Assembly (NCBI RefSeq): GCF_046119375.1
Contig: NW_027362772.1
Coordinates: forward strand, 314,650,001-314,714,000
Direction of reading: 5' to 3'
Source of the DNA: Phyllobates terribilis
Lineage: Eukaryota
Length of the DNA: 64,000 nucleotides
Of the stretch, positions 1-57,034 are shown one piece after another. The notes beneath the pieces were generated by a model that was not told the origin of the DNA, did not search any database, and worked only from the letters and a program-made list of their open reading frames with translations. A program made the translations under genes and the position numbers. Within the stretch, counting starts at the first letter, position 1; each line of letters begins with the position of its first letter.

Positions 1-702
1 GAGATACTAGCTCGGCTGAAGGACACCTTTGATACCCGTACCTCAGCCGAGATCAAGCTTCGATTCTACGGGTGCAAGCAGCGAGCACATGAGAATATAA
101 GGGACTATGCGCTAAACCTACAAGAGGCCCTGAGAGCCATTAAGCAGGCCGACCCTGACGGCGTGGGAAACGAAGACAAACTGTTGACTGAACAATTTAT
201 AGAGGGTCTACATTGTAATGCCCACCGAACCCAGTTGCGGGCCATGGCCTTACAGGACCCTCATCTGGACTTTGCACAGTTCAAGGACAGAGCCATCCGG
301 GTGCTCCGAGAACCGGCACCAGGTGGCGCTGTGACCCACAAACGCCCTGCTACCACTTACCACCAGGAGACGGCGCCCTTGTCGGCAGGGCCTGTGGGAG
401 CTGATGCGCAGGCTTTAAACAATGACCTGGCTACAGACCTGCACCATCAGGTCCAAGAGCTAACTAAAAGCGTTGCCGCGCTAACCCGAACTGTGCAGTC
501 CTTACAGGTTTCTACTCCAGGGAAGATCCAGCTGGCTTCCGGACCGGAGGATATCCCGTGGCGCCGACCAAGGAGGACCCCACCGGCCAGAGGAAGACCC
601 AGCGACCGATACAACGAGGACGGACAACCCATCTGCCGCCGCTGCAATCAACCCGGACATATGGCAAGGTACTGTCCTTTAAACTGGCACAACCTGGGGT
701 AG
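1..702 (+). CDS. gag: Gag C-terminal part (5'-partial)
   Basis: Frame 1 open from base 1 (EILARLKDTF...KQRAHENIRDYALNLQ...EQFIEGL) to TAG at 700-702; ends with CRRCNQPGHMARYC (CX2CX4HX4C). Confidence 0.92.
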   Translation, partial: EILARLKDTFDTRTSAEIKLRFYGCKQRAHENIRDYALNLQEALRAIKQADPDGVGNEDKLLTEQFIEGLHCNAHRTQLRAMALQDPHLDFAQFKDRAIRVLREPAPGGAVTHKRPATTYHQETAPLSAGPVGADAQALNNDLATDLHHQVQELTKSVAALTRTVQSLQVSTPGKIQLASGPEDIPWRRPRRTPPARGRPSDRYNEDGQPICRRCNQPGHMARYCPLNWHNLG

Positions 703-3700
703 AGGGCCAACCCCTAGGAATAAGATCACCAGGCCCATCGAACTGGCGTGACAAATACGTGGGAGGACGTCCAGTCTTGCCTGTGGTACTGGATGGCATT
801 CCTATGAGTGCCCTACTTGACACCGGGTCACAGGTCACCACCATCCCGTACTTGCTCTTCAAGCAGTACTGGAATGACTCGGATATAACCCGCTACCCAG
901 ACGACGACTTGAGTATCATCGCCAGCAATGGTCAGCCCGTGCCACAGATCGGATTTAAAGAGATGACCATTAAAATCGGTAAAGTCGAACTGGCAGCACA
1001 GGGACTGATCATTGTAGACATTGACAAGCGCGAGAGTCACCCAAAGATAACTCTAGGAACTAATGTGATTGAAAATTGTCTTGCGGAGGTGATTCTCATT
1101 TTACAGCAGGTTGCCAAGAATGCCAGCTCCGGCCAGCAGCGAGTGCTCCAAAAAGAGATCCGGGCACTGATGCGACGGCAACAAGTGGAACTCTCCGGTG
1201 GTGAGATAGGTAGCGTGAGAATGTGTGACCCGTTCCCTATTGCAATGCCCCCAAAAAATGAAATGATGATTTGGTGCCGGGCAGCTATTGGTCTCAGAGG
1301 TAGAGACTACCAAGCAATGGTAGAACCCGTCTACTCAGACAGTAGGCCCACCATTTTGACAGCACGGGGGGTGGTTGATGTACGCCATGGGAGGGTGCCC
1401 GTTCGCATAATAAATATCGGGAAGAGGGAAGTGTACCTGCCCCGGTATGCTACGCTAGCCAAATTGTATACCATCAACCAAAATTCTGTACAGTCCGTGG
1501 AACCCTTGCCTCCATCTCATCCAGAGGAAGGTAACGGCTCTAAGCAACAAATGGAGGACTGGTGTCAGCAACTACATTTGGGTACTGACTCCACTCCCTC
1601 ACACCAGAAACAGGGAGTCTATCGGGTGGTTCGAGAGTACGAGAGAGTGTTTAGTAAACACCCGCTAGACTTCGGGCGAGTAAAGGGGGTAGAACACCAC
1701 ATCCCCACGGGAAACCATCCTCCCATAAAGGAGAGATACCGACCCGTACCCCCTGCACACTACCAACACGCCAAGGGGATGCTTAGAGACATGAAGGAGG
1801 CTGGGGTAATCAGGGATAGCTGTAGCCCCTGGGCAGCTCCACTAGTCTTGGTTAAAAAGAAAGACTACACTATGAGAATGTGTGTAGATTACCGGAAAAT
1901 CAACCGTATCACACACAAAGATGCATACCCCTTACCAAGGATAGAGGAGTCTTTGGCTGCTTTAAAATCTGCTAACTTCTTCTCCACTTTGGATCTCACT
2001 AGCGGGTACTGGCAGGTTCCTGTAGCAGAGGCGGACCGGGAGAAGACCGCATTCACCACCCCGATGGGACTTAGCGAGTTTACCTGCATGCCGTTCGGAC
2101 TCTGCAACGCACCAGGAACCTTCCAACGATTGATGGAATGCTGTCTGGGACACCGGAACTTTGAGACGGTCCTGCTGTACCTGGACGATGTTATAGTTTA
2201 TTCCAAAACCTACGAGGACCACCTGAAACACCTGGCGGAGGTGTTTGAAGCCCTGGCAAACTATGGTCTGAAGGTGAAACCGTCGAAGTGTCACCTGCTA
2301 AAACCAAAAGTGCAGTACCTGGGACACGTGGTGAGTGCTGACGGAGTGGCCCCCGACCCTGATAAGATCACCGCGATTAAGGAATGGCCAAGACCCTCCA
2401 GCGTAAAGGAAGTGCGGCAGTTCCTCGGGTTGGTAGGCTACAACCGAAGATTCATTCCCGGTTTCACCAAAAAGGCAGCTCCTATGCAGGACCTCCTGAT
2501 AGGCCAGTCCAGGAAGGCCAAGAACCAGAAGCCGCCCTTCAGATGGGAGAAGCTGGAAGAAGAGTCCTTCCGCCAGCTGAAGATGGCCCTCACGGGGGAT
2601 GAAATCCTGGCGTACCCTGATTACAGCCAGCCCTTTATCCTCCACACCGACGCAAGTGACATCGGGCTGGGAGCCGTACTGTCCCAGATCCAGCAGGGGA
2701 GAGAACGGGTAATTGCTTACGCCAGCCGAAAACTGCGACCCACCGAAAGAAACCCTGAGAATAACAGCTCATTCAAGCTAGAGTTCCTGGCAGTGGTGTG
2801 GGCAGTCACCGAACGCTTTAAGCACTACCTAGCCTCTTCCCGGTTCACCGTGTACACGGATAACAACCCGTTGACACACCTGGACACTGCAAGACTCGGT
2901 GCCCTGGAGCAGAGATGGATGGCCCGCCTGTCCAACTATGAGTTCACGATCAAATACCGGGCAGGACGCTCCAATACCAACGCGGATGCCTTGTCCAGAA
3001 TGCCAAACCTACCGGACGTAGGGGAAGATCCAGGGGAACTGGAAGAAGTTGAACTCCCCGCGTTTCACCGTCATGGGACTACCCAGTATTCCCACCGTGT
3101 AAGGGGTAAGCAATCCGCTACGTTCAACCCCTTACCTCATTACAACTGGGCAGAAACGCAAGACAGTGACCCCGCCGTCCGACTGGTGAAGGAGATGCTG
3201 ACTCAGCCAGATGCCCGCCTTGACCCAGACGCTCCGGAGGAGACCAAGCAACTGTGGGCTGAGAAGAGTCGACTGTTCCTTTACAAGGGGAAGTTGTGCC
3301 GCAGAATGGTTAACTCCCGGACGCATGAACTGGTCTGGCAAGTAGTGGTGCCAAGAACAGACGCGGCAATGGTACTGGAGGCATACCACGACGGAGCTGG
3401 GCACTTCGGATGGAAGAAGCTGGAGTTCCTGCTGCGCGGGCGGTTCCACTGGGTAGGCATGAGAGGAACCATCGAGAGGTGGTGCAGAGACTGTGGCCCA
3501 TGCAACCTAAGAAGGAAGGACCGTGCCAGCCAGAAGGCTCCCCTGCAGTCCATCGTCACCAGGCAGCCGTTGGAACTGGTAGCCTTGGACCATGTAAAAC
3601 TGACCCCCAGCAGAAGTGGCTACGTCTATGCGTTAACCATCGTGGATCACTACTCCCGGTTCTTGGTTGTAGTCCCCGTCAAGGACTTAACGGCTCAAAC

Positions 3701-4814
3701 AGCAGCTAGAGCCTTCCAGCAGCACTTCTGCCGTCCACACGGATACCCAGAGCAGGTGCTGACGGACCAAGGACCTGCCTTTGAAGCGGAAGACTTCCAG
3801 GAGTTCTGCACTCTGTATGGCTGCCGGAAGATAAGAACAACACCCTATCATCCGCAAACCAATGGACTCTGCGAGAAGATGAACCAGGTGGTGATAGACC
3901 TTCTGGAAACATTGCCCCTGGAAGAACGCAGTCTGTGGCCTGAGAAACTGCCTGATCTGGTGGACCTATACAACCACATCCCTGTAGGTTCTACCAACTG
4001 TACCCCGGCTTACCTAATGAGAGCAAGACCTGGTAAGCTGCCTGTTGATCTGGATATGGGAGTCCTGACACCCGAGGACACTTCACCAGAAGCAGACTGG
4101 GACACAGAGAGGCAGCAGCAGTACCGGAAAGTACAGGAGAGTGTTGAGCGAAGTCTCTGTCAAGCAAGAGAAAGACAGGAGAAGACTTACAACCAGCATG
4201 CTCCCGCTGTTCCCCTGGTACCTGGAGAGCAGGTCTTGAAGAGGAAAAGACGGCTCCACAAGTTGGACGACCAGTGGGAGAAGGACCCGTACACCGTACT
4301 GCCATCAAGCCATGAAAACCCAAAAATCTGCACAATCAGTAAGGATGGAGGAGAAACCACAGCCATTGTCTCCCGAGATCACCTGAAGAAGTGTCCCGAG
4401 CAACTACGAAACCCTGAAGAAGATCAAGAAAACACTCGACCCGCAGAGGAAAGGGAAGAGATGGTCAGTACTGTACTCGGAGACTTCCCTCGGTCTTGGA
4501 CACAAGTAAATGGCGCTGTTGTGGTACCCGTCCTCACCTTCCTCCAGCCAGCATCCCAAGTGCCTACGGAAAAACAGGTAGAGCTGGAAGAGCAACCGGT
4601 CCAGGAGGCAGAAGACCCCACACAAGCAGACCAGGAGAATCGACCCTCTGCTTATAGTGAGCCTGCCGTGCCCCTAGTGAGCCAAAGAGTCCGTAGACAG
4701 CTGCCCAGCTTACCTTTGACAGCTCCTACACCCTGTAGCTCAGGACCGGTCAGTAAGCTCCGTAGGTCTACTAGGGCCACTAGAGGCCAGTTGCCCGTAC
4801 GTTGGAGGATCTAA
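558..4814 (+). CDS. pol: Pol polyprotein (protease, RT, RNase H, integrase), probably entered by -1 frameshift near 678-684
   Basis: LLDTGSQ protease; LDLTSGYWQ, MPFGLCNAPGTFQR and YLDD in RT; TDASDIG RNase H; HDGAGHFG...CRDCGPC Zn site; ALDH/TDQG/E integrase core; no internal stops. Confidence 0.96.
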   Translation: MAPTKEDPTGQRKTQRPIQRGRTTHLPPLQSTRTYGKVLSFKLAQPGVEGQPLGIRSPGPSNWRDKYVGGRPVLPVVLDGIPMSALLDTGSQVTTIPYLLFKQYWNDSDITRYPDDDLSIIASNGQPVPQIGFKEMTIKIGKVELAAQGLIIVDIDKRESHPKITLGTNVIENCLAEVILILQQVAKNASSGQQRVLQKEIRALMRRQQVELSGGEIGSVRMCDPFPIAMPPKNEMMIWCRAAIGLRGRDYQAMVEPVYSDSRPTILTARGVVDVRHGRVPVRIINIGKREVYLPRYATLAKLYTINQNSVQSVEPLPPSHPEEGNGSKQQMEDWCQQLHLGTDSTPSHQKQGVYRVVREYERVFSKHPLDFGRVKGVEHHIPTGNHPPIKERYRPVPPAHYQHAKGMLRDMKEAGVIRDSCSPWAAPLVLVKKKDYTMRMCVDYRKINRITHKDAYPLPRIEESLAALKSANFFSTLDLTSGYWQVPVAEADREKTAFTTPMGLSEFTCMPFGLCNAPGTFQRLMECCLGHRNFETVLLYLDDVIVYSKTYEDHLKHLAEVFEALANYGLKVKPSKCHLLKPKVQYLGHVVSADGVAPDPDKITAIKEWPRPSSVKEVRQFLGLVGYNRRFIPGFTKKAAPMQDLLIGQSRKAKNQKPPFRWEKLEEESFRQLKMALTGDEILAYPDYSQPFILHTDASDIGLGAVLSQIQQGRERVIAYASRKLRPTERNPENNSSFKLEFLAVVWAVTERFKHYLASSRFTVYTDNNPLTHLDTARLGALEQRWMARLSNYEFTIKYRAGRSNTNADALSRMPNLPDVGEDPGELEEVELPAFHRHGTTQYSHRVRGKQSATFNPLPHYNWAETQDSDPAVRLVKEMLTQPDARLDPDAPEETKQLWAEKSRLFLYKGKLCRRMVNSRTHELVWQVVVPRTDAAMVLEAYHDGAGHFGWKKLEFLLRGRFHWVGMRGTIERWCRDCGPCNLRRKDRASQKAPLQSIVTRQPLELVALDHVKLTPSRSGYVYALTIVDHYSRFLVVVPVKDLTAQTAARAFQQHFCRPHGYPEQVLTDQGPAFEAEDFQEFCTLYGCRKIRTTPYHPQTNGLCEKMNQVVIDLLETLPLEERSLWPEKLPDLVDLYNHIPVGSTNCTPAYLMRARPGKLPVDLDMGVLTPEDTSPEADWDTERQQQYRKVQESVERSLCQARERQEKTYNQHAPAVPLVPGEQVLKRKRRLHKLDDQWEKDPYTVLPSSHENPKICTISKDGGETTAIVSRDHLKKCPEQLRNPEEDQENTRPAEEREEMVSTVLGDFPRSWTQVNGAVVVPVLTFLQPASQVPTEKQVELEEQPVQEAEDPTQADQENRPSAYSEPAVPLVSQRVRRQLPSLPLTAPTPCSSGPVSKLRRSTRATRGQLPVRWRI
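678..736 (+). promoter_or_regulatory. -1 programmed ribosomal frameshift signal (slippery heptamer plus predicted pseudoknot)
   Basis: T TTA AAC at 678-684 in gag phase; stem CCTGGGGT(693-700)/ACCCCTAGG(710-718); loop GGGCC(704-708) complementary to GGCCC(732-736); pol is -1 to gag. Confidence 0.8.
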
Positions 4815-5181
4815 AGTGTTCAGACTGTTTTATTGGTATTTACCTGTTTACTGTTGCTTGTAAATAATTATGTTTTTTCTAGTTATTTTATAGGTGTCTT
4901 TTGTGGATTAACCGGAACTCTGTTGTATATATGTTTGGAGCGTAACCCAGGAACGGACTAAAGACTGTTAAAGACTCGGGGCAGAACAGACCCCTACCTG
5001 GTTACGGCTCCCTGTTCTTTGGTGAAATGGACACCCTTTTTGCTTCAAAAATTGCACCCGGTTGCGGACACGCCGTGACCACCCTAATGTGTTTTTCCTT
5101 ATTGTATTGCTCCTGTTTATACCCTGTTATGTTTTCAAAAATATGTTTAGTCCCGGAGTACTAAATTTTACTAGGGGGGAA

Positions 5182-6218
5182 TGTGGAACCCCAGGGGTCT
5201 GGTTACCACAGTAATAGCAATATTACGTCTGTGAGCAGGTGGGAGGTCTCCTGGTCAGGAATCCTAAGCATGCAACATCTCCTGCCCAGTCCTGGGAGGG
5301 GAAGAACTTCCCCTATATAAACTGGGGCTGAGGCGGGGTTAGGGAGAAGAAGAGGAGTCCCAGACAGAGACACAGTCTGGTCTGGAGTGGAGCTGATACA
5401 GGGAGAGCAAGATCAGGAGCTCTGTGGGAGCAGTGATAAAAGGGGTCAGAGACTGGAAGCTGTAGAGCTCGTCCTGACTGAAGAGATCTCACCGGACACG
5501 GAGTCCGAGGCTGTGGGGACTGAGCCATACCCAGCAGCAGAAACCGACCGGCAGGGGATTTCAGGTCCTCTGGCCAAGAAACCCGAAGGCACGGTCACAC
5601 GCAAGGGACCAGCACCGCTGTCGTGGAGCGGAGGCTACCAGAAGGCCCTGAGTCACCGGCCATACGGGTGAGCACCACACGGTACACTCAGGGACGTGGG
5701 CTACTTTTACCCGCTTCTAGCAAGGTAGCCAGGAAGAGTACAATTAGTGGGGAGGCCTACAACTCCACCTGGCCAGGGGAGATCCTATCTGCTCACGGAC
5801 TGACCAGGCCCCGATCGCTAGCCAGTACTCCCGGGAGGGTCTACCTTTGCCACCAGTAAAGACCCTGAACTACACCGCACCGTCTCTGAGTGGTTCCTGG
5901 TGCCTGCGAGCAATTCTACTATCCCCATCATCCATGTCCGCTGCCCTGAGGCCATACCCCTCCCGTTGGGGGTTATACTATCCACGCTGCACAACCGTAC
6001 CACCGGCCTCAGCGGTCTGCCCTGCAGCGGCGGTTTCATAACCGCATTCAACGGGTGGCGTAGTCGAACACTATAACATCTTATACTAAACTCCGCCGCT
6101 TAGTTTGACACCCTGGGCACGGACCGGGTCACCGCCACGAGGACTACTATCCCCAGCAGATCCGGCTCCGGGTATCCCCCTGCGCAGCAGAAGCAGCACA
6201 GGCCCAGGGGGTGCGTCA
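5182..6218 (+). repeat. 3' LTR of autonomous Gypsy (1037 bp)
   Basis: Starts TGT directly after PPT; TATATAAA 5314-5321; AGTAAA 5855-5860 (possible polyA signal variant); ends GGGGGTGCGTCA like the other LTRs, then satellite begins. Confidence 0.9.
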
Positions 6219-8794
6219 CAGGCACGTGGAGGCCACACACAATACTCAGCCTCATCAGGAGCATGCCCAGGCGTTGTAGGGAGGTCATACAGGCACGTGG
6301 AGGCCACACACAATACTCAGCCTCATCAGGAGCATGCCCAGGCGTTGTAGGGAGGTCATACAGGCACGTGGAGGCCACACACAATACTCAGCCTCATCAG
6401 GAGCATGCCCAGGCATTGTAGGGAGGTCATACAGGCACATGGAGGCCACACACAATACTGAGCCTCATCAGGAGCATGCCCAGGCGTTGTAGGGAGGTCA
6501 TACAGGCACATGGAGGCCACACACAATACTCAGCCTCATCAGGAGCATGTCCAGGCGTTGTAGGGAGATCATACAGGCAGGTGGAGGCCACACACAATAC
6601 TCATCCTCATCAGGAGCATGCCCAGGCGTTGTAGGGAGGTCATACAGGCACGTGGAGGCCACACACAAGACTCAGCCTCATCAGGAGCATGCCCAGGCGT
6701 TGTAGGGAGGCCATACAGGCACGTGGAGGCCACACACAATACTCAGCCTCATCAGGAGCATGCCCAGGCGTTGTAGGGAGGCCATACAGGCACGTGGAGG
6801 CCACACACAATACTCAGCCTCATCAGGAGCATGCCCAGGCGTTGTAGGGAGGTCATACAGGCACATGGAGGCCACACACAGTACTCTGCCTCATCAGGAG
6901 CATGCCCAGGCATTGAAGGGAGGTCATACAGGCACGTGGAGGCCACACACAATACTCAGCCTCATCAGGAGCATGCCCAGGCGTTGTAGGGAGGTCATAC
7001 AGGCACGGGGAGGCCACACACAATACTCAGCCTCATCAGGAGCATGCCCAGGCGTTGTAGGGAGATCATACAGGCAGGTGGAGGCCACACACAATACTCA
7101 GCCTCATCAGGAGCATGCCCAGGAGTTGTAGGGAGGTCATACAGGCACGTGGAGGCCACACAATACTGAGCCTCATCAGGAGCATGCCCAGGCGTTGTAG
7201 GGAGGTCATACAGGCACGTGGAGGCCACACACAATACTCAGCCTCATCAGGAGCATGCCCAGGCATTGTAGGGAGGTCATACAGGCACGTGGAGGCCACA
7301 CACAATACTGAGCCTCATCAGGAGCATGCCTAGGCGTTGTAGGGAGGTCATACAGGCACGTGGAGGCCACACACAATACTCAGCCTCATCAGGAGCATGC
7401 CCAGGCGTTGTAAGGAGGTCATACAGGCACGTGGAAGCCACACACAATACTCAGCCTCATCAGGAGCATGCCCAGGCGTTGTAGGGAGGTCATACCGGCA
7501 CATGGAGGCCACACACAATACTCAGCCTCATCAGGAGTATGCCCAGGCGTTGTAGGGAGGTCATACAGGCACGTGGAGGCCACACACAATACTCAGCCTC
7601 ATCAGGAGCATGCCCAGGCGTAGTAGGGAGGTCATACAGGCACGTGGAGGCCACACACAATACGCAGCCTCATCAGGAGCATGCCCAGGCGTTGTAGGGA
7701 GGTCATACAGGCACGTGGAGGCCACACACAATATTCAGCCTCATCAGGAGCATGCCCAGGCGTTGTAGGGAGGTCATACAGGCACGTGGAGGCCACACAC
7801 AATGCTCAGCCTCTTCAGGAGCATGCCCAGGCGTTGTAGGGAGGTCATACAGGCACGTGGAGGCCACACACAATGCTCAGCCTCTTCAGGAGCATGCCCA
7901 GGTGTTGTAGGGAGGTCATACAGGCACGTGGAGGCCACACACAATACTCAGCCTCATCAGGAGCATGCCCAGGCATTGTAGGGAGGTCATACAGACACGT
8001 GGAGGCCACACACAATACTCAGCCTCATCAGGAGCATGCCCAGGCGTTGTAGGGAGGTCATACAGGCACGTGGAGGCCACATACAATACTCAGCCTCATC
8101 AGGAGCATGCCCAGGCACTGTAGGGAGGTCATACAGGCACGTGGAGGCCACACACAATACTCAGCCTCATCAGGAGCATGCCCAGGCGTTGTAGGGAGGT
8201 CATACAGCCACGTGGAGGCCACACACACAATACTCAGCCTCATCAGGAGCATGCCCAGGTGTTGTAGGGAGGTCATACAGGCACGTGGAGGCCACACACA
8301 ATACTCAGCCTCATCAGGAGCATGCCCAGGCGTTGTAGGGAGGTCATACAGGCATGTGGAGGCCACACACAATACTCAGCCTCATCAGGAGCATGCCCAG
8401 GCATTGTAGGGAAGTCATACAGGCACGTGGAGGCCACACACAATACTCAGCCTCATCAGGAGCATGCCCAGGCATTGTAGGGAAGTCATACAGGCACGTG
8501 GAGGCCACACACAATACTCAGCCTCATCAGGAGCATGCCCAGGCGTTGTAGGGAGGTCATACAGGCACGTGGAGGCCACACACAATACTCAGCCTCATCA
8601 GGAGCATGCCCAGGCGTTGTAGGGAGGTCATACAGGCACGTGGAACCACACACAATACTCAGCCTCATCAGGAGCATGCCCAGGCGTTGTAGGGAGGTCA
8701 TACAGGCACATGGAGGCCACACACAATACTCAGCCTCATCAGAAGCATGCCCAGGCATTGTAGGGAGGTCATACAGGCACGTGGAGGCCACGCA
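6219..8794 (+). repeat. 71-bp satellite derived from a Tc1 transposase 3' end (~36 units)
   Basis: Unit CAGCCTCATCAGGAGCATGCCCAGGCGTTGTAGGGAGGTCATACAGGCACGTGGAGGCCACACACAATACT; encodes LIRSMPRRCREVIQARGGHTQY, identical to the end of the transposase at ~62970-63040. Confidence 0.95.
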
Positions 8795-10039
8795 TGTAGC
8801 ACCCTGAGGACTCGGCTGCTACAGGGGTATTGCACCTCAAACCAGAAGTGTGGTATTCCACTCCCGGGTAAGGATGGAGTGTGGGACTGAGCTCAGTAGG
8901 CTGCATGCACTACATACATCCCATTTCCGGGGGACAGAACTACGGTACTCCCACCAGTTAAATGTGCAGGTACGACAGCGTCTGTCCCTGGCTGGAGTGG
9001 GAGGGGGGGTGGAACATCCCAGTAGTGTAGGGGCAGATAGGGGGAGTACTCTGGGTAAAGCTAGGAGCCCATTGGGTGCTGGTCACCTGGGCTCACACAT
9101 AGAGGGAGTATATAAGGTGGGCATCATCTAGAGATAGGGTCTTTTTAGTCAAGTTCAGCCTGAGGAGAAGCAGAGCAGAGGAGCTCAGCCAGGAGGGCTG
9201 ACAGGGAGCTGTGGCTCCGGCTGGGCCCAGCTCCAGGGCCAAGCATGAAGAAAGAGGAGGAAGAAGGACCCAGGGAGGCAGAGCCAGAGGGAACCCTAAG
9301 ATCCCAGAATCAGACCAAAAAGGGTGAAGGGTTGGCAGAAAAGCGCACCGGATCCCAAGCTGGCGGAGGCAAAAGTAACCCTTAGCCAGGAACCGGAGGT
9401 CGTGGGCAAGCTTTGCCACGACCCTCACCACATCCACCAGGAAGGTACACCAAGAGTAGGGTCAGGAAAGCCAGAGAAGGTTTTGCCATCAGAAGGCCCA
9501 AGGGAACCGGACAAAGGTGGATCCCTGGTGGGGACGGCCAGCAGAAAGAGAGAGAGAGGGGAGCTCAGGACCACGCTCCGGAACTGCCTGGGGGTTAGCC
9601 GAGCCCCGCACCTGGTGGACGCAGCACGGCTCGGGTGGTCACTCAAGGCCAGAGTGACTAAAGCAACATCAGTGAGTAAAAACCCTGAAACTGCATCCCA
9701 CGTCTCTGTGCCTCCTTACCGCACCATCACAACCTCCATCATCTACTCCTGCTGCCCTGAGGCCATACCCCTCCCGTTGGGGGTTATACCATCCCTGCTG
9801 CACCCATACCACCGGCCTCAGCGGACTGTTTTGCAGCGGCGGCCTTGTGACCGCAAATCAACGGGTGGCGTAGTCGACACACATTCTAACATCTACTGCT
9901 AATAGACTCGCCGCTTAGTTTGACTCCCTGGGCACGGACCGGGTCACCGCCACGAGACTACTACCCCCATCTGATCCGGCTCCGGGTAAGCCCCCGTGCG
10001 CGCGATGCCGCACGACACAGAAGGCCCAGGGGCGCGTCA
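8795..10039 (+). repeat. 5' LTR of element A
   Basis: TGT...TCA; ATTGG 9071-9075; TATATAA 9109-9115; AGTAAA 9675-9680; direct repeat of 12403-13647. Confidence 0.95.
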
Positions 10040-10043
10040 ACTT

Positions 10044-10061
10044 TGGCGTAGTCGGCAGGAT
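10044..10061 (+). promoter_or_regulatory. Primer-binding site for tRNA-Ser (element A)
   Basis: TGGCGTAGTCGGCAGGAT, 4 nt after the LTR; reverse complement of the 3' 18 nt of vertebrate tRNA-Ser (..AUCCUGCCGACUACGCCA), from recalled tRNA sequence. Confidence 0.9.
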
Positions 10062-10295
10062 CTCGTGCCCGCAACCACCGGGTACTGCGTGCCTGAAGAA
10101 AAGTTTATCTGTACCGTAAAAAGAAGTCTCCCGCCAATTCCGGAGGGTCCCCGCCATCGGACGTCGTCCGGAGTCGTTTCCCGCCGGTTGCCCGCCATCT
10201 GCAGTCTTTTCCCGCCATCCACAGAGTTTCCCGCCATTGGGAAGCGGTTCCCGCCATCTGAGACGATTTCCCGCCCTGGCAGAGCGGACGCCATT

Positions 10296-43122: not shown

Positions 43123-46100
43123 TGTAGCACCCTGAGGACTCGGCTGCTACAGGGGTATTACACCTCAAGCCAGAGGTGTGGTATTCCACTCCCGGGTAAG
43201 GATGGAGTGTGGGACTGAGCTCAGATAGCTGCATACACTACATACATCCCATTTCCGGGGGACAGACCGACGGTACTCCCACCAGTATATGTGCAGGTAC
43301 GACAGTGTCTGTCCCTGGCTGGAGTGGGAGGGGGGTGGAACATCCCAGTAGTGTAGGGGCAGATAGGGGGAGCAGTCTGGGTAAGGCTAGGAGCTCATTG
43401 GGTGCTGGTCACCTGAGCTCACACATAGAGGGAGTATATAAGGTGGGCACCATCTTAGATCAGGGTCAGTCTTCTGTAGAGGGTCAGTCAGTCCTGAGAG
43501 AGGTCCAGGAGCGCCTGTAGAGAGAAGAGAGAGAGGAGAAGAGAAGGACCCAGAGGGGGAGAAGAAGGAACCCCAAGAACCCAGTATACAACCAGAAGGG
43601 TGAAGGGTTGGCACGCAAGGGAACCGGATCCCAAATTAGTGGAGGAGAGAAACTACCCTCAACTAAGAACCGGAGGCTGCGACATTACATGTGGAGCAGC
43701 CCCTCACCAAGTCCACTAAGAAGGCACACTGAGCATAGGGTCAGGGAAGCCAAAGAAGGTTCACCCAACAGGAGACCCGAGGGAGCCGGACATAAGTGGA
43801 CCCCTGGTGGGAACGGCCAGTAGAGAAGACAGTCAGAAAGGGAGCTCAGGACCACGCTCCAGAATTGCTTGGGGGTTGGCCGAGTCCAGGACCTGGTGGA
43901 CGCAGCACGGCTCGGGCGGTCACTCAAGGCCAGAGTGACCAACAGAACAGCAGTAAGTAAAAACCCTGAACTGCACAGCCCGACTCTGAGTCTTCTTACC
44001 ATCCACACTGCACCACCACTACCACCATCCTCTACACCTGACCCCCTGAGGCTATACCCCTCCCGTTGGGGGTTATACTACCACAGCTGCACATATACCA
44101 CCAGCCTCAGCGGACCCTGCTGCAGCGGCGGCCTTTTGACCTCAAATCAACGGGTGGCGTAGTCGACACTAAGAACAACTAATAACATCTGTAAAGACTG
44201 CCACACACTGAGTTTGACACCCTGGGCACGGACCGGGTCGCCGCCACTCGGAGACTACAACCCCCATCAGATCCGGCTCCGGGTAATCCCCGAACAGCAC
44301 TGGCCCAGGGGGCGCGTCAACTTTGGCGTAGTCGGCAGGATTTCGTGCCCGCAACCACCGGGTACTGTTTGCCTGAAGAAAAGTTCAAATTTACCTCAAG
44401 AAGAAGTCTCCCGCCGGTTCCAGAGGGTCCCCGCCATGGGACGCCATCACGGATCGTTTCCCGCCGGTTGCCCGCCATCTGCAGCTTTTTCCCGCCATTT
44501 CCAGAAGATTTCCCGCCTTGGAAGAGCGGACGCCATTATGGGCGTGCCAGAGGGTGGCAAGAGGTCACCTCCCATCGTGGGCCAGGTAAAGGAATGGCGC
44601 CAAAAGCGGAAACCGCCCCCACCAACGGAGACTGTGATGCTAGAGATGTCCATCAGCGTGAGAGAACTGCCCCTGGAACTGACAATCACAAAGTTGCCCC
44701 GGGACCACCTTCAATGTGGGCGGAGACAGAACAAGAGAGCGAAGATGGGTGCAGCCTGGAGAAGTCTGGAGAGAGCGCACCCGGAGACAAGAAGTCTGGA
44801 GAGGACTCCGGAGAAGTCGTACCCGGAGATGGAAGGAGAGTCAGGCAGCACCGACCCTGTGGTCAGGAGCCTGCTGCAAGCAACAACCCCACTAGGCTTA
44901 GTGGAGATCCTGGCACAGCTCCCCCGAGACCGGGAGTGTGCGCAGACCGCGCTGGAGCGCCTCGCATGGAGGATGGCCCAGGTGCAGCGAGAGATGCTGA
45001 CGAAGTGGAGCCGAGAGATGGCCCTGCAGGCAAGAACCCGCCAGCGAAGCACGCCACCCGAGACGAGGAGACAGACCGCCTCTGAGGATGGTGCAGGAGG
45101 AGTGAAGGCCGGAGACGGCGCCGAAGAGGGAGCTGAACAGATGGAGGCAGGTAAAGGGGACGTCACTACCCCGAGCCGAGAAACCGCGTGCCTGCCCCAG
45201 CTCCCCGTCGCAGAGCCCGAAAATCCCCCTGCCGTGCCCGTCGCTGCATCGTCACCGCTCCAGACAAGGCCTCAAGCAGAAGCCGCGGCCGCGACCCCTG
45301 TGACGTCACGCGCCTCAATCCTGAGCGCGGCAAAGCAGGAAACACCACCGGCCTGGTCGCAAGGTCTAGTACCCCCGGGCGCCGCAGTACCAACAGCGCC
45401 CTCTACCTCCACTGAGCCACCGGCCTGGTCGCTGGGCCAAGTAACCCCGGGCGCCGCCGTCTTCACGGTGCCCTTTACGTTCAGGGTACCCCAGGCCTGG
45501 TCGCAAGGCCTGGCGAACCCGGGCGCCGCCACCACCACCGCGCCCTCAACATCCACAGCGCCACACCTGGGTGAAGACCTATTTGCCCAGCATACGTGCC
45601 CGGATGGGCAGCCCTTTAGATGGCCACCGGAGTACTACCAACTGGAACTCCAAAAAGCAAGGCCCCTGGATGAGCCCCTGATCCCGGCTCCGGCGCCCGC
45701 CAAGATCACCCCACTCTCGCTGGAGGAAGGAGCTGGAGGACGTCGCCACTGATGTACAGTAGGAGCACTGTAAATAGTTACCCGTGAAGGTACAATAACT
45801 GTTACCATTATAGTCCCCGTTGGGACCAGTGAACTGTTCCAGTGTGTCCCATCTCCCCACAGGCTGAGGACTGTGAACAGCCATCCCTTTTCCCCACTGG
45901 TCGAGGACTGAGAGCGGCCATATTTCCCCTTGTATATAGTTGCGCTTTTTAAGGCGCCCCCTACTGGTTTTATAGGAAAGCTGTGTTATTCTACAAGAGA
46001 CTGTCGCACTTTACCCGGTCACAAGTTGCACCGTCGCCGGAGGAACAAGAAAGTTTACAAGAATGTTTATTATGAAAAAGTTTTATGCTGCAGAAATATA

Positions 46101-47403
46101 TATATAATGTTTTATATGTTTATGTTGTTATGAAAAAAAATTGTATGTTTATGGATGTTTTATTCTCTTACAGCCCGAGGACGTGCTGTGATTTACCAGG
46201 GGGGAATGTAGCACCCTGAGGACTCGGCTGCTACAGGGGTATTACACCTCAAGCCAGAGGTGTGGTATTCCACTCCCGGGTAAGGATGGAGTGTGGGACT
46301 GAGCTCAGATAGCTGCATACACTATATACATCCCATTTCCGGGGGACAGACCGACGGTACTCCCACCAGTATATGTGCAGGTACGACAGTGTCTGTCCCT
46401 GGCTGGAGTGGGAGGGGGGTGGAACATCCCAGTAGTGTAGGGGCAGATAGGGGGAGCAGTCTGGGTAAGGCTAGGAGCTCATTGGGTGCTGGTCACCTGA
46501 GCTCACACATAGAGGGAGTATATAAGGTGGGCACCATCTTAGATCAGGGTCAGTCTTCTGTAGAGGGTCAGTCAGTCCTGAGAGAGGTCCAGGAGCGCCT
46601 GTAGAGAGAAGAGAGAGAGGAGAAGAGAAGGACCCAGAGGGGGAGAAGAAGGAACCCCAAGAACCCAGTATACAACCAGAAGGGTGAAGGGTTGGCACGC
46701 AAGGGAACCGGATCCCAAATTAGTGGAGGAGAGAAACTACCCTCAACTAAGAACCGGAGGCTGCGACATTACATGTGGAGCAGCCCCTCACCAAGTCCAC
46801 TAAGAAGGCACACCGAGCATAGGGTCAGGGAAGCCAAAGAAGGTTCACCCAACAGGAGACCCGAGGGAGCCGGACATAAGTGGACCCCTGGTGGGAACGG
46901 CCAGTAGAGAGGACAGTCAGAAAGGGAGCTCAGGACCACGCTCCAGAATTGCTTGGGGGTTGGCCTAGTCCAGTACCTGGTGGACGCAGCACGACTCGGG
47001 CGGTCACTCAAGGCCAGAGTGACCAACAGAACAGCAGTAAGTAAAAACCCTGAACTGCACAGCCCGACTCTGAGTCTTCTTACCATCCACACTGCACCAC
47101 CACTACCACCATCCTCTACACCTGACCCCCTGAGGCTATACCCCTCCCGTTGGGGGTTATACTACCACAGCTGCACATATACCACCAGCCTCAGCGGACC
47201 CTGCTGCAGCGGCGGCCTTTTGACCGCAAATCAACGGGTGGCGTAGTCGACACTAAGAACAACTAATAACATCTGTAAAGACTGCCACACACTGAGTTTG
47301 ACACCCTGGGCACGGACCGGGTCGCCGCCACTCGGAGACTACAACCCCCATCAGATCCGGCTCCGGGTAATCCCCGAACAGCACTGGCCCAGGGGGCGCG
47401 TCA
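43123..47403 (+). mobile_element. Non-autonomous LTR element B (CSD-deleted derivative)
   Basis: 1197-bp LTRs 43123-44319 and 46207-47403 (~7 differences by eye); perfect TSD CTAA; tRNA-Ser PBS 44324-44341; PPT before 46207. Confidence 0.95.
44538..45752 (+). CDS. Element B ORF: homolog of the element C protein lacking the C-terminal coiled coil and CSD
   Basis: MGVPEGGKR...PLDEPLIPAP...LEE|GAGGRRH*; in-frame fusion to the same terminal codons as element A; start codon assumed. Confidence 0.7.
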   Translation: MGVPEGGKRSPPIVGQVKEWRQKRKPPPPTETVMLEMSISVRELPLELTITKLPRDHLQCGRRQNKRAKMGAAWRSLERAHPETRSLERTPEKSYPEMEGESGSTDPVVRSLLQATTPLGLVEILAQLPRDRECAQTALERLAWRMAQVQREMLTKWSREMALQARTRQRSTPPETRRQTASEDGAGGVKAGDGAEEGAEQMEAGKGDVTTPSRETACLPQLPVAEPENPPAVPVAASSPLQTRPQAEAAAATPVTSRASILSAAKQETPPAWSQGLVPPGAAVPTAPSTSTEPPAWSLGQVTPGAAVFTVPFTFRVPQAWSQGLANPGAATTTAPSTSTAPHLGEDLFAQHTCPDGQPFRWPPEYYQLELQKARPLDEPLIPAPAPAKITPLSLEEGAGGRRH

Positions 47404-48204: not shown

Positions 48205-51200
48205 TGACGCGCCCCCTGGGACATATTCCTTTTTGAGGGGAATACCCGGCACCGGATCAGATGGGGGGTTGTAGTCTCCGAGCGGCTGTGACCCGGCCCC
48301 GTGCCCAGGGCGTCAAGCTCAGTGTTATGTGGCAGCTTTACAGATGTTACTAAAGTTCTTTTGTGTCGACTACGCCACCCGTTGTGATGCGGTCACTGTG
48401 GCCGCCGCTGCAGCAGGGTCCGCTGAGGCTGATGGTGGATGCGCAGCTTGGTGGGATAACCCCCAACGGGAGGGGTATAGCCTCAGAGGGGACAGGCGCA
48501 GAGGATGGGGGTTGTGGTGGTGCGGTGCAGCCGGCAATGAAGACAGACTCGGGTTGTGCAGTTAAGGGTGTTTACTTACTGCAGATGTTGTACTGGTCAC
48601 TCCAGCTGCTAGTGACCACCCGAGCCGTGCTGCGTCCACCAGGTCCTGGATCCAGCCAACCCCCAAACAAGTCCGGAGCGTGGCCCTGAGCTCTCCCTCT
48701 GTCCTTTCTTCAGCCGTCCCCACCAGTGATCCACCTAGGTCCAGCTCCCTCGGGCCTTCTGTTGGGACACCCTTGGCCCTGGGTTCCCTGACCCTTCATG
48801 TGGTGTGCCTTCGGGGTGAATATGGTGGGTGACCGTGGCAAACGCTGCCCACGATCTCCGGTCTCTGGCTAGGGATTGTTTTTGCCCCCACCAGCTTGGG
48901 TTCCGGTACCCTGATGCTGACTCCTCACCCGGTGCTCTAGTTTGGGTTCTTGGGTCCCTTCAGTCTTCCCCCTCTGGGTCTTTCTCTGCTCCACTCTCTC
49001 TCTCTCCAGGGCTGCTGTTTCCTTCTCTCTCCTCTCCAACTCACTTTCTGCGTCTGAACTTGTCCTCTGCAGCTGACTGACCCTGATCTAAGTTGGTGCC
49101 CTCCTTATATATCCCTCTATGTGTGAGCTCAGGTGACCAGCACCCAATGAGCTCCTATCACTACCCAGACTGCTCCCCCTATCTGCCCCTACACTACATG
49201 GGATGTACCACCCCCCTCCCACTCCAGCCAGGAACAGGCTCGGTTGTACCTGCACATTTCTAAGTGGGAGTACCGTCGGCCTGCTCCTCTGAAATGGGAT
49301 GTATGTAGTGCATGCAGTCTATCTGAGCTCAGTTCCACACTCCATCCTTACCCGGGAGTGGAATATCACACCTCTGGGTTGAGGTGCAATACCCCTGTAG
49401 CAGCCGAATCCTCAGGGTGCTACATTCCCCCCTGGTAAATCACAGCACGTCCTCGGGCTGTAAAGACATAAAACACCAAAACATACAATTTTTTTTTTCA
49501 TATAAACATATAAAACATATAAAACATTATATATATAAAACTTTTTTATATAAACATTCTCGTAGACTTCTCTTGTCTCTGGTTCCTCCTCCGGACACTG
49601 TGCAACGTGTGTCCGGGAAAAGTGCGACAGTCTCTTAGAAAAACTGGTTTTCTATAAAACCGGTAGGGGGCGCTTTAGGAAGCGCAACTATATACAGGGA
49701 GAAGTTGGAAGTTGGCCGCTCTCAGTCCTCGGCCAGGTAGAGGGAAGGGAATGGCTGCTCACAGTCCTCAGCCTGTAGGATAAAGGGGTTAACGGGTAAA
49801 CAGTTCACTGGTCCCAACGGGGACTATTTTAGCTCTAACGGTTCACTGTGCCCCGACGGGCAACTATATACAGTCTCTACTCCCGTCCTCAACGACGGCT
49901 CCCTCCTGCTTTTTCTTGATATGGTGTTGCTTCAGACCCGTCCGGGTCCTCTGGCTCCTCCTCTCCGTACCGCAACTCCTCCTCCGTCAAGCGGTGTACG
50001 TGGAGGGCGTAAGGTCCTTTGGCACACTTGTGCCGGGTGAAAGTGACTTCGTCTCCGACGTAGAGGTCACGGCCTTTGTGACCTTCCGGCAGGTGGGACT
50101 CGACGTCTCTGCGAGTCACAAAAACGTCACCGCGGTTGTTACGGTCCCGAATAAAGCCCCACCCATGCTGCGGGTTGAACTTTATCACTGTCCCGATGGT
50201 GCGGGGACAATGCGCTGCACGGGGGTTCCTCCTAGTCCGGCTCTTCTGCTCCGCGCTCCGGATTTGGGCCTGTTGTTCTCTGACCCGCCTCTCCTCCCGT
50301 TCTCTCTTAAACTCTGCTAGCTGCTGACGACAACACTCAGTACGCTCAGCGGCGACTGCCCGAGTTTCCTGAGTGAACCCCATTAGATCTTCTCCGGTGG
50401 GGTCCCACTCAAACTGTGCTTCCGCTAGCGGGGGCGAGATCCGTGCCACGGGCTTCGGAGCCGGAATCAGGGGTTCATCCAGGGGTCTTAGTCTCTGCTG
50501 CCGTTCCAGCTCATGGTATCCTTCGGGCCAGATGAAGGGCCGCCCGTCCGGCCATGTGAGCTGGCTGAAGAGGTCCTCCCCCAGGTGTGGCACCCTTGGT
50601 ATTGCGGGCGCGGGCGCGGTGGTGGTGGCGCCCGGGTTGCCCAGGCCTTGCGGCCAGGCCTGGGGCACCTGGAAGGTGAAGGGCACCGTTAGGACGGCGG
50701 CGCCCTGGGCTACCTGGCCTTGCGGCCAGGCCGGAGGCTCCGCGGAGGTAGGGGGCGCTGTTGGTGGTGCGGCGCCCGGGGGTACTAGGCCTTGCGACCA
50801 GGCTGGTGGTAATTCCTGCTTTGTCACGCTCCGGGTCGAGGCGCGTGACGTCACAGGGGTCGCTGCGGCGGCTTCCGGTCGGGGCCTAGTCCATGGCGGT
50901 GACATGGCGGCTACGGGCACAGCAGGGGGACTTTCGGGCTCTGCGACGGGGAGCTGGGGCAGGTGGGCGGTTTCTCGGCTTGGGGTATAGGCGTCCCCTT
51001 TACCTGCCTCCATGCGTTCGGCTCCCTCCTCGGCGCCGTCTCCGGCCTTGGGTCCTCCCGCGCCATCCTCAGAGGCGGTCTGCTTCCTCGTCTCGGGCGG
51101 CGTGCTCCGCTGACAGGTCTCGGTCTGCTGGGCCATCTCACGGCTCCACTGCGCCAACGTCTCTCGCTGCACCCGGGCCATCCTCCTTGCGAGGCCCTCC

Positions 51201-53194
51201 AGAGCAGTTTGTGCACACTCCCGGTCTCGGGGGAGCTGCGCTAAGATCTCCGCTAGACCTAGCGGGGTTGTGGACTCTAGCAGGCTCCTGACCATCGGGT
51301 CGGTGCTGCTCTGCTCTTCTTCCGGCAGGCTCCTGGCCAGCGGGCCGGTGCTGCTCTGCCCTCCTTCCTCGGTCTCTAGCAGACTCCTGGCCAGCGGGCC
51401 GGTGCTGTTCTGCTTTCTCTCCATCTCCGGGTGAGCTCCTCCGCTACTCCTCGTTAGACCTCTTGCCTCCGGGTGCGCTCGCTCCAGACTGCTCCAGGCG
51501 ACACCCATCTTTGTTCTCTCCTTTCGTCTCCTCCCACTTCGAGGGCGGTCCCGGGGCAACTCGGTGACTGTCAGCTCCAGGGGTAGTTCTTTCACGCTGA
51601 CAGACACCTCCAACATCACAGTCTCTGTTGGTGGGGGCGGTTTCCACTTTTGGCGCCATTTTCTGTCCTGGCCCACGATGGGAGGTGGCCTCCTGCCCTC
51701 CTTTGGCACGCCCATAATGGCGTCCGCTGCTCTTCCAAGGCGGGAAATCTGCGGTTTTGGCGGGAAGCGTCGCCCAGTGGCGGGAAACTCTGCAGATGGC
51801 GGGAACAAGCTGGAAATGGCGGACAATCGGCGGGAAACGACTGGTGATGGAGTCCGATGGCGTGGACCCTCCGGAACCGGCGGGAGACTTCTTTCTGAGG
51901 TAAACTTGCACTTTTCTTCAGGCACGCAGTACCCGGGTGTTGCGGGCACGTAATCCTGCCGACTACGCCAAAGTTGACGCGCCCCCTGGGACATATTCCT
52001 TTTTGAGGGGAATACCCGGCACCGGATCAGATGGGGGGTTGTAGTCTCCGAGCGGCTGTGACCCGGCCCCGTGCCCAGGGCGTCAAGCTCAGTGTTATGT
52101 GGCAGCTTTACAGATGTTACTAAAGTTCTTTTGTGTCGACTACGCCACCCGTTGTGATGCGGTCACTGTGGCCGCCGCTGCAGCAGGGTCCGCTGAGGCT
52201 GATGGTGGATGCGCAGCTTGGTGGGATAACCCCCAACGGGAGGGGTATAGCCTCAGAGGGGACAGGCGCAGAGGATGGGGGTTGTGGTGGTGTAGTGCAG
52301 ACGGCAGTGAAGACAGAGTCGGGTTGTGCAGTTAAGGGTGTTTACTTACTGCAGATGTTGTACTGGTCACTCCAGCTGCTAGTGACCACCCGAGCCGTGC
52401 TGCGTCCACCAGGTCCTGGATCCAGCCAACCCCCAAACAAGTCCGGAGCGTGGCCCTGAGCTCTCCCTCTGTCCTTTCTTCAGCCGTCCCCACCAGTGAT
52501 CCACCTAGGTCCAGCTCCCTCGGGCCTTCTGTTGGGACACCCTTGGCCCTGGGTTCCCTGACCCTTCATGTGGTGTGCCTTCGGGGTGAATATGGTGGGT
52601 GACCGTGGCAAACGCTGCCCACGATCTCCGGTCTCTGGCTAGGGATTGTTTTTGCCCCCACCAGCTTGGGTTCCGGTACCCTGATGCTGACTCCTCACCC
52701 GGTGCTCTAGTTTGGGTTCTTGGGTCCCTTCAGTCTTCCCCCTCTGGGTCTTTCTCTGCTCCACTCTCTCTCTCTCCAGGGCTGCTGTTTCCTTCTCTCT
52801 CCTCTCCAACTCACTTTCTGCGTCTGAACTTGTCCTCTGCAGCTGACTGACCCTGATCTAAGTTGGTGCCCTCCTTATATATCCCTCTATGTGTGAGCTC
52901 AGGTGACCAGCACCCAATGAGCTCCTATCACTACCCAGACTGCTCCCCCTATCTGCCCCTACACTACATGGGATGTACCACCCCCCTCCCACTCCAGCCA
53001 GGAACAGGCTCGGTTGTACCTGCACATTTCTAAGTGGGAGTACCGTCGGCCTGCTCCTCTGAAATGGGATGTATGTAGTGCATGCAGTCTATCTGAGCTC
53101 AGTTCCACACTCCATCCTTACCCGGGAGTGGAATATCACACCTCTGGGTTGAGGTGCAATACCCCTGTAGCAGCCGAATCCTCAGGGTGCTACA
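48205..53194 (-). mobile_element. Non-autonomous LTR element C with intact cold-shock-domain ORF
   Basis: 1220-bp LTRs 51975-53194 (5') and 48205-49424 (3'); perfect TSD ATCA; PBS 51953-51970; PPT ~49425-49433. Confidence 0.96.
49889..51715 (-). CDS. ~608-aa protein with C-terminal cold-shock domain (frame stays open upstream to an ATG at 51994, giving 701 aa)
   Basis: CSD at 49997-50194 with RNP1-like HGWGFI and RNP2-like DVFVT; strong-context ATG (GCCATTATGG) conserved in A, B and C; synonymous-rich divergence versus element A. Confidence 0.85.
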   Translation of the reverse strand: MGVPKEGRRPPPIVGQDRKWRQKWKPPPPTETVMLEVSVSVKELPLELTVTELPRDRPRSGRRRKERTKMGVAWSSLERAHPEARGLTRSSGGAHPEMERKQNSTGPLARSLLETEEGGQSSTGPLARSLPEEEQSSTDPMVRSLLESTTPLGLAEILAQLPRDRECAQTALEGLARRMARVQRETLAQWSREMAQQTETCQRSTPPETRKQTASEDGAGGPKAGDGAEEGAERMEAGKGDAYTPSRETAHLPQLPVAEPESPPAVPVAAMSPPWTRPRPEAAAATPVTSRASTRSVTKQELPPAWSQGLVPPGAAPPTAPPTSAEPPAWPQGQVAQGAAVLTVPFTFQVPQAWPQGLGNPGATTTAPAPAIPRVPHLGEDLFSQLTWPDGRPFIWPEGYHELERQQRLRPLDEPLIPAPKPVARISPPLAEAQFEWDPTGEDLMGFTQETRAVAAERTECCRQQLAEFKREREERRVREQQAQIRSAEQKSRTRRNPRAAHCPRTIGTVIKFNPQHGWGFIRDRNNRGDVFVTRRDVESHLPEGHKGRDLYVGDEVTFTRHKCAKGPYALHVHRLTEEELRYGEEEPEDPDGSEATPYQEKAGGSRR

Positions 53195-55839: not shown

Positions 55840-57034
55840 TGTAGCACCCTGAGGATTCGGCTGCTACAGGAGTATTGCACCTCAACCCAGAGGTGTGATA
55901 TTCCACTCCCGGGTAAGGATGGAGTGTGGAACTGAGCTCAGATAGACTGCATGCACTACATACATCCCATTCCAGAGGAGCAGGCCGACGGCACTCCCAC
56001 TTAGAAATGTGCAGGTGCGACCGAGCCTGTTCCTGGCTGGAGTGGGAGGGGGGAGGAACATCCCATGTAGTGTAGGGGCAGATAGGGGGAGCAGTCTGGG
56101 TAGTGGTAGGAGCTCATTGGGTGCTGGTCACCTGAGCTCACACATAGAGGGATATATAAGGAGGGCACCAACTTAGAATCAGGGTCAGTCAGCTGCAGAG
56201 GACAAGTCAGATGCAGAGAGCAGGAAACAGCAGCCCTGGAGAGAGAGAGAGTGGAGTGAAGAAAGACCCAGAGGGGGACAAAGAAGGGACCCAAGAACCC
56301 AAATAAGAACACCGGGTGAGGAGTCAGCAAGAGGGTACCGGAACCCAAGCTGGTGGGGGCAAAGACATTCCCCAGCCAGAGACCGGAGACCGTGGGCAGT
56401 GTCTGTCACGGTCACCCACTACATTCACCCTGAAGGCACACCACAGGAAGGGTCAGGGAACCTAAGGCCAAAGGTTGCCCAACAGAAGGCCCGAGGGAGC
56501 TGGACTTAGGTGAATCACTGGTGGGGACGGCTGAAGTAAGGACAGAGGGAGAGCTCAGGGCCACGCTCCGGACTTGTTTGGGGGTTGGCCGGATCCAGGA
56601 CCTGGTGGACGCAGCACGGCTCGGGAGGTCACTTGGAGCTAGAGTGACCAGGAACATCTGCAGTAAGTAAAGACCCTTAACTGCACTACCCGAGTCTGTC
56701 ATCATTACCGGCTGCACCGCACCACCACAACCCCCATCCTCTGCGCCTGTCCCCTCTGAGGCTATACCCCTCCCGTTGGGGGTTATCCCACCAAGCTGCG
56801 CATCCACCATCAGCCTCAGCGGACCCTGCTGCAGCGGCGGCCACAGTGACCGCATCACAACGGGTGGCGTAGTCGACACAACGAACTTTAATAACATCAG
56901 TAAAGACTGCCACATAACCCTGAGCTTGACGCCCTGGGCACGGGACCGGGTCACAGCCGCTCGGAGACTACAACCCCCCATCTGATCCGGTGCCGGGTAT
57001 TCCCCTCAAAAAGGAATATGTCCCAGGGGGCGCG

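Follow-up and report, generated by a model that had tools for sequence, protein, structure and literature searches.

The 64-kb window analysed here, that is, the whole stretch of DNA under study, comes from the 10.6-Gb genome of the poison frog Phyllobates terribilis. It holds an autonomous Ty3/gypsy element (X) together with members of another LTR-element family (N) that encodes a cold-shock domain (CSD). The locus raises the question of whether X mobilises N, and of what the piece of LTR common to both families is for. A sequence-only reading had proposed a helper and its parasite sharing only the 3' segment of the LTR. The features that the argument draws on are the following, in window coordinates.

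1..702, + strand: 3' part of X gag, PNMA-like, with a CCHC knuckle (Pfam); its frame is broken upstream of the window
468..4814, + strand: X pol ORF (PR-RT-RH-IN), 1448 aa stop to stop, in another frame than gag and overlapping it
5173..5181, + strand: X polypurine tract (PPT), AGGGGGGAA, identical in A, B and C
5182..6218, + strand: X 3' LTR, 1037 bp, 98.8% identical to its own 5' LTR upstream of the window (L011)
5182..5854, + strand: X-specific U3 and R; beyond the first ~14 nt no alignment to N LTRs
5855..5860, + strand: AGTAAA, likely polyA signal and left edge of the shared segment, present in 70/70 sampled LTRs
5855..6218, + strand: segment shared by X and N, end of R plus U5 (inferred boundaries), with conserved hairpins (BLAST, alignment, alignment fold)
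6056..6066, + strand: 11-nt copy of the PBS inside U5, TGGCGTAGTCG, which tracks primer type across families
6133..6147, + strand: CGCCAC...GACTAC, complementary to parts of the PBS; GCCACTGTGAC in the sister primer group
6219..6222, + strand: right target-site duplication (TSD) of X, CAGG, within the 71-bp satellite; the left CAGG is in L011
8795..13647, + strand: CSD element A, LTRs 8795-10039 and 12403-13647 (99.4%), TSD CGCA/CACA
9675..10100, + strand: shared module of A, with AGTAAA at 9675, internal PBS copy at 9866-9876, LTR end at 10039, PBS at 10044-10061 and a conserved leader hairpin
43123..47403, + strand: element B, LTRs 43123-44319 and 46207-47403 (99.4%), TSD CTAA, PBS at 44324
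48205..53194, - strand: CSD element C, LTRs 51975-53194 and 48205-49424 (99.6%), TSD ATCA, PBS 51953-51970
55840..57037, + strand: solo N-type LTR, TSD TATA

X carries gag followed by pol with the Pfam domain order PR-RT-RH-IN, as well as TG...CA LTRs, a PBS, a PPT and a short TSD, as expected of Ty3/gypsy, and the family is env-less. A TTTAAAC at ~677-683 is a likely slippery site between gag and pol. Protein relatives of X occur in frogs (the nearest at 96%, others up to 73-80%) and in fish (~60%), and the nearest named relatives of both the X and the CSD proteins are frog proteins. The element at 1-6218 had been called intact; this is true of pol, which is open for 1448 aa, but gag, whose start codon lies upstream of the window, stays open for just 80 aa, as compared to 326-327 aa in most copies. 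Among sampled X copies, gag is open in 17 of 19 and the long pol frame in 13 of 24. With gag broken in the window copy, the evidence supports the X family, rather than this copy, as the helper.

Both X and A are inserted in a satellite of 71-bp units (~95% uniform; 6218-8791, 13646-14376 and 62973-64000). This satellite begins directly after a Tc1-like transposase remnant (62147-62851; Pfam HTH_Tnp_Tc3_2, DDE_3) and looks to be derived from the 3' part of a Tc1-like element. Targeting of the satellite by X and N was considered and rejected, given that B, C and the solo LTR lie outside it and that the short flanks of other copies differ. The window also contains a 17.5-kb array of 36-bp units (25494-43048) and further arrays at 15491-18495 (39 bp), 20885-22968 (31 bp) and 53278-54720. 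A degraded gypsy-like element at ~57078-61730 has its integrase (58681-59373) upstream of its RT (60152-60769), an order that we take to be Gmr1-like. On contig C37, two identical X junctions spaced by 6.9 kb turn up together roughly once per 0.8 Mb, a pattern that suggests either tandem repetition of a very large unit or duplication in the assembly.

Family N is represented in the window by A, B, C and the solo LTR, all with LTRs of 1.2 kb. The ORF of A is in two pieces (9990-11396, and 11291-11968 with the CSD), that of B (44163-45752) has an internal deletion and no CSD match, and that of C (49889-52162) is open with the CSD at its C-terminus; Pfam recognises the domain in A and C at E ~1e-8. 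In-frame 72-bp repeats of the PPAWSQG type lie within the ORF at 11060-11267, 45345-45564 and 50627-50803. Of the 35 long copies (L100-L134), 24 have an uninterrupted ORF running from the leader to the end of the CSD, and in 20 the frame is already open from the LTR end on, across PBS and leader. Pooled pairwise dN/dS, computed over related and hence not independent copies, is 0.07 for the CSD, 0.14-0.26 for three other blocks and 0.4-0.6 elsewhere, pointing to strong selection on the CSD. Relatives with this type of CSD appear in records of Phyllobates, Ranitomeya and Anomaloglossus, and an ESM Atlas search with the conserved N-terminal part of the CSD protein gave no usable match. The likeliest role for this protein, at about even odds in our view, is that of an RNA chaperone working on the RNA of the element that encodes it. 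Its open and constrained ORF sets N apart from LARDs, which are long elements with a non-coding, structured interior. The only Pfam match in N is the CSD and nothing in it matches X gag-pol, so that it does not appear to be a gag-only (TR-GAG or Quinta-type) element either. At 4.3-5 kb, with an ORF of ~500-630 aa, N is also no TRIM, a class defined as shorter than 1 kb and non-coding (PMC10886601).

The last ~280 bp of the X LTR (5941-6218) had been described as close to all N-type LTRs, and the alignments agree. Identity is 82-90% of aligned columns in 7/7 LTRs, with 243/271 and 242/271 for A (89-90%), 231/264 and 232/264 for B (88%), 218/266 for both LTRs of C (82%) and 220/265 for the solo LTR (83%). 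BLAST stretches the match to 5855-6218 (79% to A and 74% to B, gaps counted), with the shared segment starting at AGTAAA, ~85 bp before the boundary originally proposed. Upstream, the 5' parts of the LTRs had been judged unalignable by eye, and U3 and R do indeed align no better than shuffles: 150-nt windows of 5182-5831 score 18-23 against A, B and C, inside the shuffle range (means 19-22, maxima 26-34), as compared to 82-168 for windows from 5882 on. No promoter conservation was detected in U3/R, where each family has just a generic TATA (in the X 3' LTR at 5314, with a predicted start site near 5345).

The PPT, AGTAAA and the GCGTCA ends are common to both families, as had been noted, and the conserved termini extend to a TGT.G.ACCC start. 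The claim that only the LTR 3' segment is shared survives for the unrelated U3 and R, but is too narrow for the rest of the element. The ~60 nt after the 5' LTR (PBS plus a hairpin) are 92-98% identical between X and N, CCCGCC repeats come next in both leaders (5-8 per 400 nt), and ~25 nt around the PPT can be aligned. We take AGTAAA to be a polyA signal, as in MMTV; on that reading, the shared module would run from the last part of R through the whole of U5 and the PBS into the early leader, as a single stretch at the genomic RNA's 5' end. In both families, a run rich in pyrimidines that ends in YAG also lies ~30 nt ahead of the PPT (~5140-5150 in X, 12355-12372 in A, and at all junctions examined) and may be likened to a splice acceptor.

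The shared ends and leader repeats are what one would expect if N were a deletion derivative of X that later diverged. This origin is nevertheless extremely improbable, because a profile of N ORFs has no match in the X internal region in three forward frames (best E 0.22), U3 and R do not align, the CSD ORF has its relatives in Ranitomeya and Anomaloglossus, and real deletion copies of X (L015) look different.

The two families agree in primer, target-site duplication and age. The PBS TGGCGTAGTCGGCAGGAT follows the 5' LTR of the window X copy and of other X copies, as it does in A, B and C, and is complementary to the 3' end of this genome's tRNA-Ser(AGA) and (TGA) genes (the 3 of 10 loci so called by ARAGORN). 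TSDs are 4 bp in the window copy (CAGG), in 19/19 X copies and in 24/26 N copies, the set being those whose two ends were located by script (19 of 24 long X, 26 of 34 long N). The autonomous family thus has the tRNA-Ser PBS and the 4-bp TSD that the helper proposal called for. Median LTR identity in the same set is 99.59% for X (range 98.2-100%) and 99.75% for N (99.0-100%), and the two families appear equally young and active at the same time. Nine of the 12 loci examined from the tRNA-Ser search were LTR elements with over-copied tRNA including CCA, rather than tRNA-Ser genes. Six have X- or N-type ends (L172, L177, L179-L182; L173, L178 and L183 belong to other families) and hold 25-41 nt of tRNA-Ser including CCA, which would be a trace of priming in both families. 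The tRNA-Ser stretch at these loci runs past the normal PBS, with an internal deletion next in most, and is likely a product of RT read-through of the primer.

Exact 35-nt junction patterns gave 24,342 X and 23,149 N 3' junctions genome-wide; if every counted junction were a full-length copy, both partners would come to roughly 300 Mb, or ~3% of the assembly. An exact 28-nt pattern of LTR end plus PBS, which misses X copies with one extra T, had 34,822 matches. Classification of the initial 70, which all lie at one end of contig C1, gave 25 X-type elements with gag, 43 N-type elements, one hybrid and one other. All 25 gag-bearing elements have X-type U3/R, and none of the 43 with N-type U3/R (nine of them viewed for 1.5 kb only) has a pol of its own, the pol at L127 being that of the element in which it sits. 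At that site (L127, L170, L171), two nested CSD elements of different subfamilies lie in the pol of a gypsy element of family Y, which is described below.

A tree of U5 sequences (74 rows) does not separate the two families but mixes them, with six class changes, at least five of them forced by starred branches. Monophyly of X is rejected (p-AU 1e-77, with 26 X rows and the X-type LTR of L081 constrained together). U5 flow appears to have been mostly from X to N, because the three U5 types of X follow its RT clades with the minimum of two changes (22 rows) and one N clade of 14 rows bears all three. The flow seems not to have been one-way, since the U5s of X_L110 and X_L131 contain a small patch nearer to N (91-93% vs 82-88%). 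The U5s of some N copies reach 94-96% identity to one from X, and identity between X U5s can drop to 69%. The U5 of A is 86.1% identical to another X subfamily vs 82.1% to the window copy. The helper reading therefore stands at the family level, where PBS and TSD agree and no closer autonomous relative was found among the elements sampled, but not for the window copy itself, whose gag is broken and which is further from A's U5 than other X subfamilies are. X-like tracts (at least 88% over at least 200 nt) occur in 16 of 43 N copies and start 14-103 nt after AGTAAA, never before it; three of them begin at +14 to +24, close to where polyadenylation is expected. For U5 types I-III, N has a counterpart among X subfamilies, and for type IV it has none. 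No X row falls in the B/C-type U5 clade of 31 rows, whose best identities to the 25 gag-bearing X elements in the sample are 77-83%.

Three hybrid insertions show how such exchange may occur. L081 starts with an X 5' LTR (U3/R 99.4% to L113), turns to N sequence at the PBS, ends in an N 3' LTR and is flanked by CTTA left and right; it would be the expected product of plus-strand transfer between X and N templates. Of 40 matches scored in a search with its junction, two further ones were full-length. Each LTR of L168 and of L169 joins an N U3 to an X R and U5, the Rs being 98.6% and 99.6% identical to different X donors. Their LTR pairs are 99.9% and 99.4% identical, and their TSDs are GAGA and AAAA. 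The exact X match begins at X positions 164 and 165 (TATA+31 and +32) with AGTC-type microhomology at the joins, as if full-length strong-stop DNA had landed on N RNA. The switches thus appear to fall at reverse-transcription landmarks, one at the PBS and two at TATA+31/32. All three hybrids unite B/C-type N bodies with X (L105/L113-like) LTR parts, which ties the B/C group to X despite its distinct U5. Candidates for whole-LTR swaps were rejected: X-UTR plus the N-like LTR start TGTAGCACCC had 79 matches, of which 12/12 checked were point variants of the X LTR, and N-UTR plus an X-like LTR start had 36, of which 10/10 checked were N variants.

X could be the helper and U5 still have been shared by DNA-level ectopic recombination or gene conversion among the ~50,000 copies, rather than by co-packaging. 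We regard this as unlikely. The huge copy numbers and the N-like patch inside the X_L110/L131 U5 are compatible with it, as is the switch in L081, since this falls in the longest near-identical stretch of X and N, in the PBS and leader. However, a crossover between two insertions would break the TSD, and that of L081, the sole heterologous-LTR copy with a TSD found, matches (0.014 by chance for two unrelated sites). The L168/L169 joins, with microhomology only, need a reverse-transcription step, and the flow is mostly from X to N despite equal copy numbers. A template like L081, produced by recombination of DNA, could also be the ancestor of L168 and L169, a route that only the L081 TSD opposes.

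The U5 itself has features of a folded, primer-specific module. The first 11 bases of the PBS, its acceptor-end part, are repeated inside U5 ~160 nt upstream of the PBS, exactly in 60 of 70 LTRs and with one mismatch in the other 10. The GACTAC motif, complementary to the PBS, has no mismatch in 63 of 70 LTRs. Folding 23 representatives as an alignment gave 89 pairs with 93.7% of cells paired, one predicted hairpin spanning the LTR end and the PBS. Double-sided changes affect 9/89 pairs, as compared to 1-3 in slid-pair controls, although this type of control is biased towards the predicted structure. Single-sequence folding gave z-scores of -1.8 to +0.5, a stability that is not unusual, and Rfam had 0 matches in 5800-10400. 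Pairing of U5 with other parts of tRNA-Ser was also sought; in each element, the eight best sites (at least 8 nt) turned out to be either the PBS or the copy of it in U5.

A second primer group shows the same arrangement with different letters. The sister autonomous family Y (pol 61-84% to X) has the PBS TGGCGTCACGAACAGGAT, which presumably belongs to another tRNA-Ser isoacceptor, and the internal copy TGGCGTCACGA. TGGCGTCACGAACAGGAT has 4,224 matches in the genome; the first nine comprise five gag-bearing elements, three of CSD type and one unclear, and the group includes elements with gag ~65% to X. In 11 second-group LTRs, the internal copy has 0-3 mismatches to its own PBS and 4-6 to that of X, and the anti-motif is TGTGAC in nine. 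Between the CSD element L196 (counted once with its near-identical neighbour L197) and the gag-pol element L201, sharing is confined to the last 366 bp (-366..0), at 93.9%. The PBS is renewed from the tRNA in each cycle and the internal copy is not; that the two co-vary all the same implies selection. The internal copy and the PBS-complementary motif are probably a primer-docking or PBS-gating switch. In the literature searched, we found no description of a PBS duplicate that tracks primer identity as a priming control element.

Family Y was considered as the helper of A, B and C and rejected, having another PBS and a U5 that A, B, C and X queries do not match at E 1e-5. The existence of Y and of the ~65%-gag group, together with the lack of a close X match for the B/C U5, would be in keeping with old ancestry preserved by selection, with B/C-type elements moved mainly by another, unsampled autonomous family. 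We consider this highly improbable: these relatives have a different PBS and a U5 clade of their own (100/100), all three hybrids join B/C-type bodies to X LTR parts, and the checked TGTAGCACCC matches proved to be X.

We therefore favour a model, in our judgement quite probable, in which X Gag and Pol mobilise N and U5 is exchanged by co-packaged reverse transcription; the helper-parasite pairing of X and N by itself is likelier still. X Gag and Pol would package and reverse-transcribe the RNA of the non-autonomous N, which would retain its own promoter, R and gene and have in common with X only U5, the tRNA-Ser PBS, the early leader, the PPT and the LTR tips. Helper proteins would read the shared module of U5, PBS and leader, as its anatomy and the hybrids suggest. 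X and N RNAs may sometimes be copied in one particle. Minus-strand DNA from X RNA that jumps to N RNA early in U5 or at the polyA end would give N an X U5, a jump after the cap would give it an X R and U5, and a jump of plus-strand DNA through the shared PBS would give it a whole X 5' LTR. Such exchange would keep the U5 of N matched to its current helpers, with the PBS duplicate and the complementary motif probably docking the tRNA or gating the PBS. The model rests directly on sequence sharing, the match in PBS, TSD and age, tree incongruence, hybrids and motif co-variation; the start and polyA sites, co-packaging, protein recognition and motif roles are what we infer. A wider picture is possible, although doubtful: a clan of frog gypsy helpers, each tagged by a primer-keyed U5 RNA switch, and a separate, satellite-like lineage that appropriates this tag and can thereby stay with a helper or move to another. 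Its CSD protein would be an RNA chaperone on the switch or the particle, winning packaging or boosting both partners and helping the 10-Gb genome to expand.

Poison-frog genome papers report abundant Gypsy elements, and their main texts contain neither 'non-autonomous' nor 'cold shock' (PMC6278860; 10.1101/2023.11.06.565769). No CSD-encoding LTR element or frog helper pair was found in the literature searched; Repbase, Dfam and supplements may already contain the families. So far, most helper-parasite LTR pairs have been proposed for plants on the basis of common motifs. In this vertebrate genome, both partners are young and number tens of thousands of copies, with hybrid joins at strand-transfer places, making co-packaging of unrelated RNAs and its minimal cis signal testable by census. 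The primer-tracking PBS duplicate points to a control element for priming, and the strongly selected CSD gene in a non-autonomous element raises the question of how encoding an RNA-binding protein would benefit a parasite.

In soybean, SARE and SNRE reportedly refresh their partnership by exchanging LTR sequence, and in rice Dasheng is said to be a high-copy non-autonomous partner of RIRE2, with larger LTR parts reportedly shared in both pairs than in X and N. Compared to these plant pairs, X and N exchange no more than U5 in most cases, R plus U5 or a whole LTR being transferred more rarely, and they carry a PBS duplicate specific to the primer. The wheat helper pair of autonomous RLG_Cereba and non-autonomous RLG_Quinta resembles ours in its common PBS, PPT and LTR tips, its conserved LTR 3' half and the ORF kept by the non-autonomous partner (PMC11302176). 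As described there, however, Quinta derives from Cereba, encodes GAG and shares sequence from near the TATA box; in X and N, promoter and R are unrelated, sharing starts at the polyA-like signal, and the CSD ORF is unrelated to X gag. Partners among wheat Wilma, Sabrina, WHAM and Angela subfamilies were recognised by PBS, LTR tips and age, and a host switch by LTR transfer was proposed (PMC9744471). By the features used in that account, X and N agree in age, PBS and primer, and LTR termini with TSD, but not in promoter conservation. In its comparison, Wilma, Sabrina and WHAM share short motifs only, including a promoter motif, whereas X and N share a 360-bp U5 with no detected promoter homology.

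Among vertebrates, mouse VL30 is a non-coding element of 86 full-length copies with a 4-bp TSD, packaged by the retroviral helper MLV (PMC4859993). N is likewise a vertebrate non-autonomous LTR element with a 4-bp TSD that would travel in a helper's particles; unlike VL30, it has ~23,000 copies, a gene under apparent selection and, on our model, an env-less gypsy helper. Extra primer sites are described in Drosophila Gypsy, Ty3 and Ty1 (PMC1635307). The second site of Gypsy, also 11 nt and tRNA-complementary, lies near the 3' end and matches another part of the tRNA, whereas the copy in X and N lies inside U5 and changes with the primer. Finally, intermolecular first transfer within an LTR clan yields the U3 of one parent with the R and U5 of the other (PMC6894440). 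L168 and L169 are mosaics of this type; there, transfer proceeds via R homology and is rare between distant RNAs, whereas here the Rs are unrelated and the joins show microhomology.
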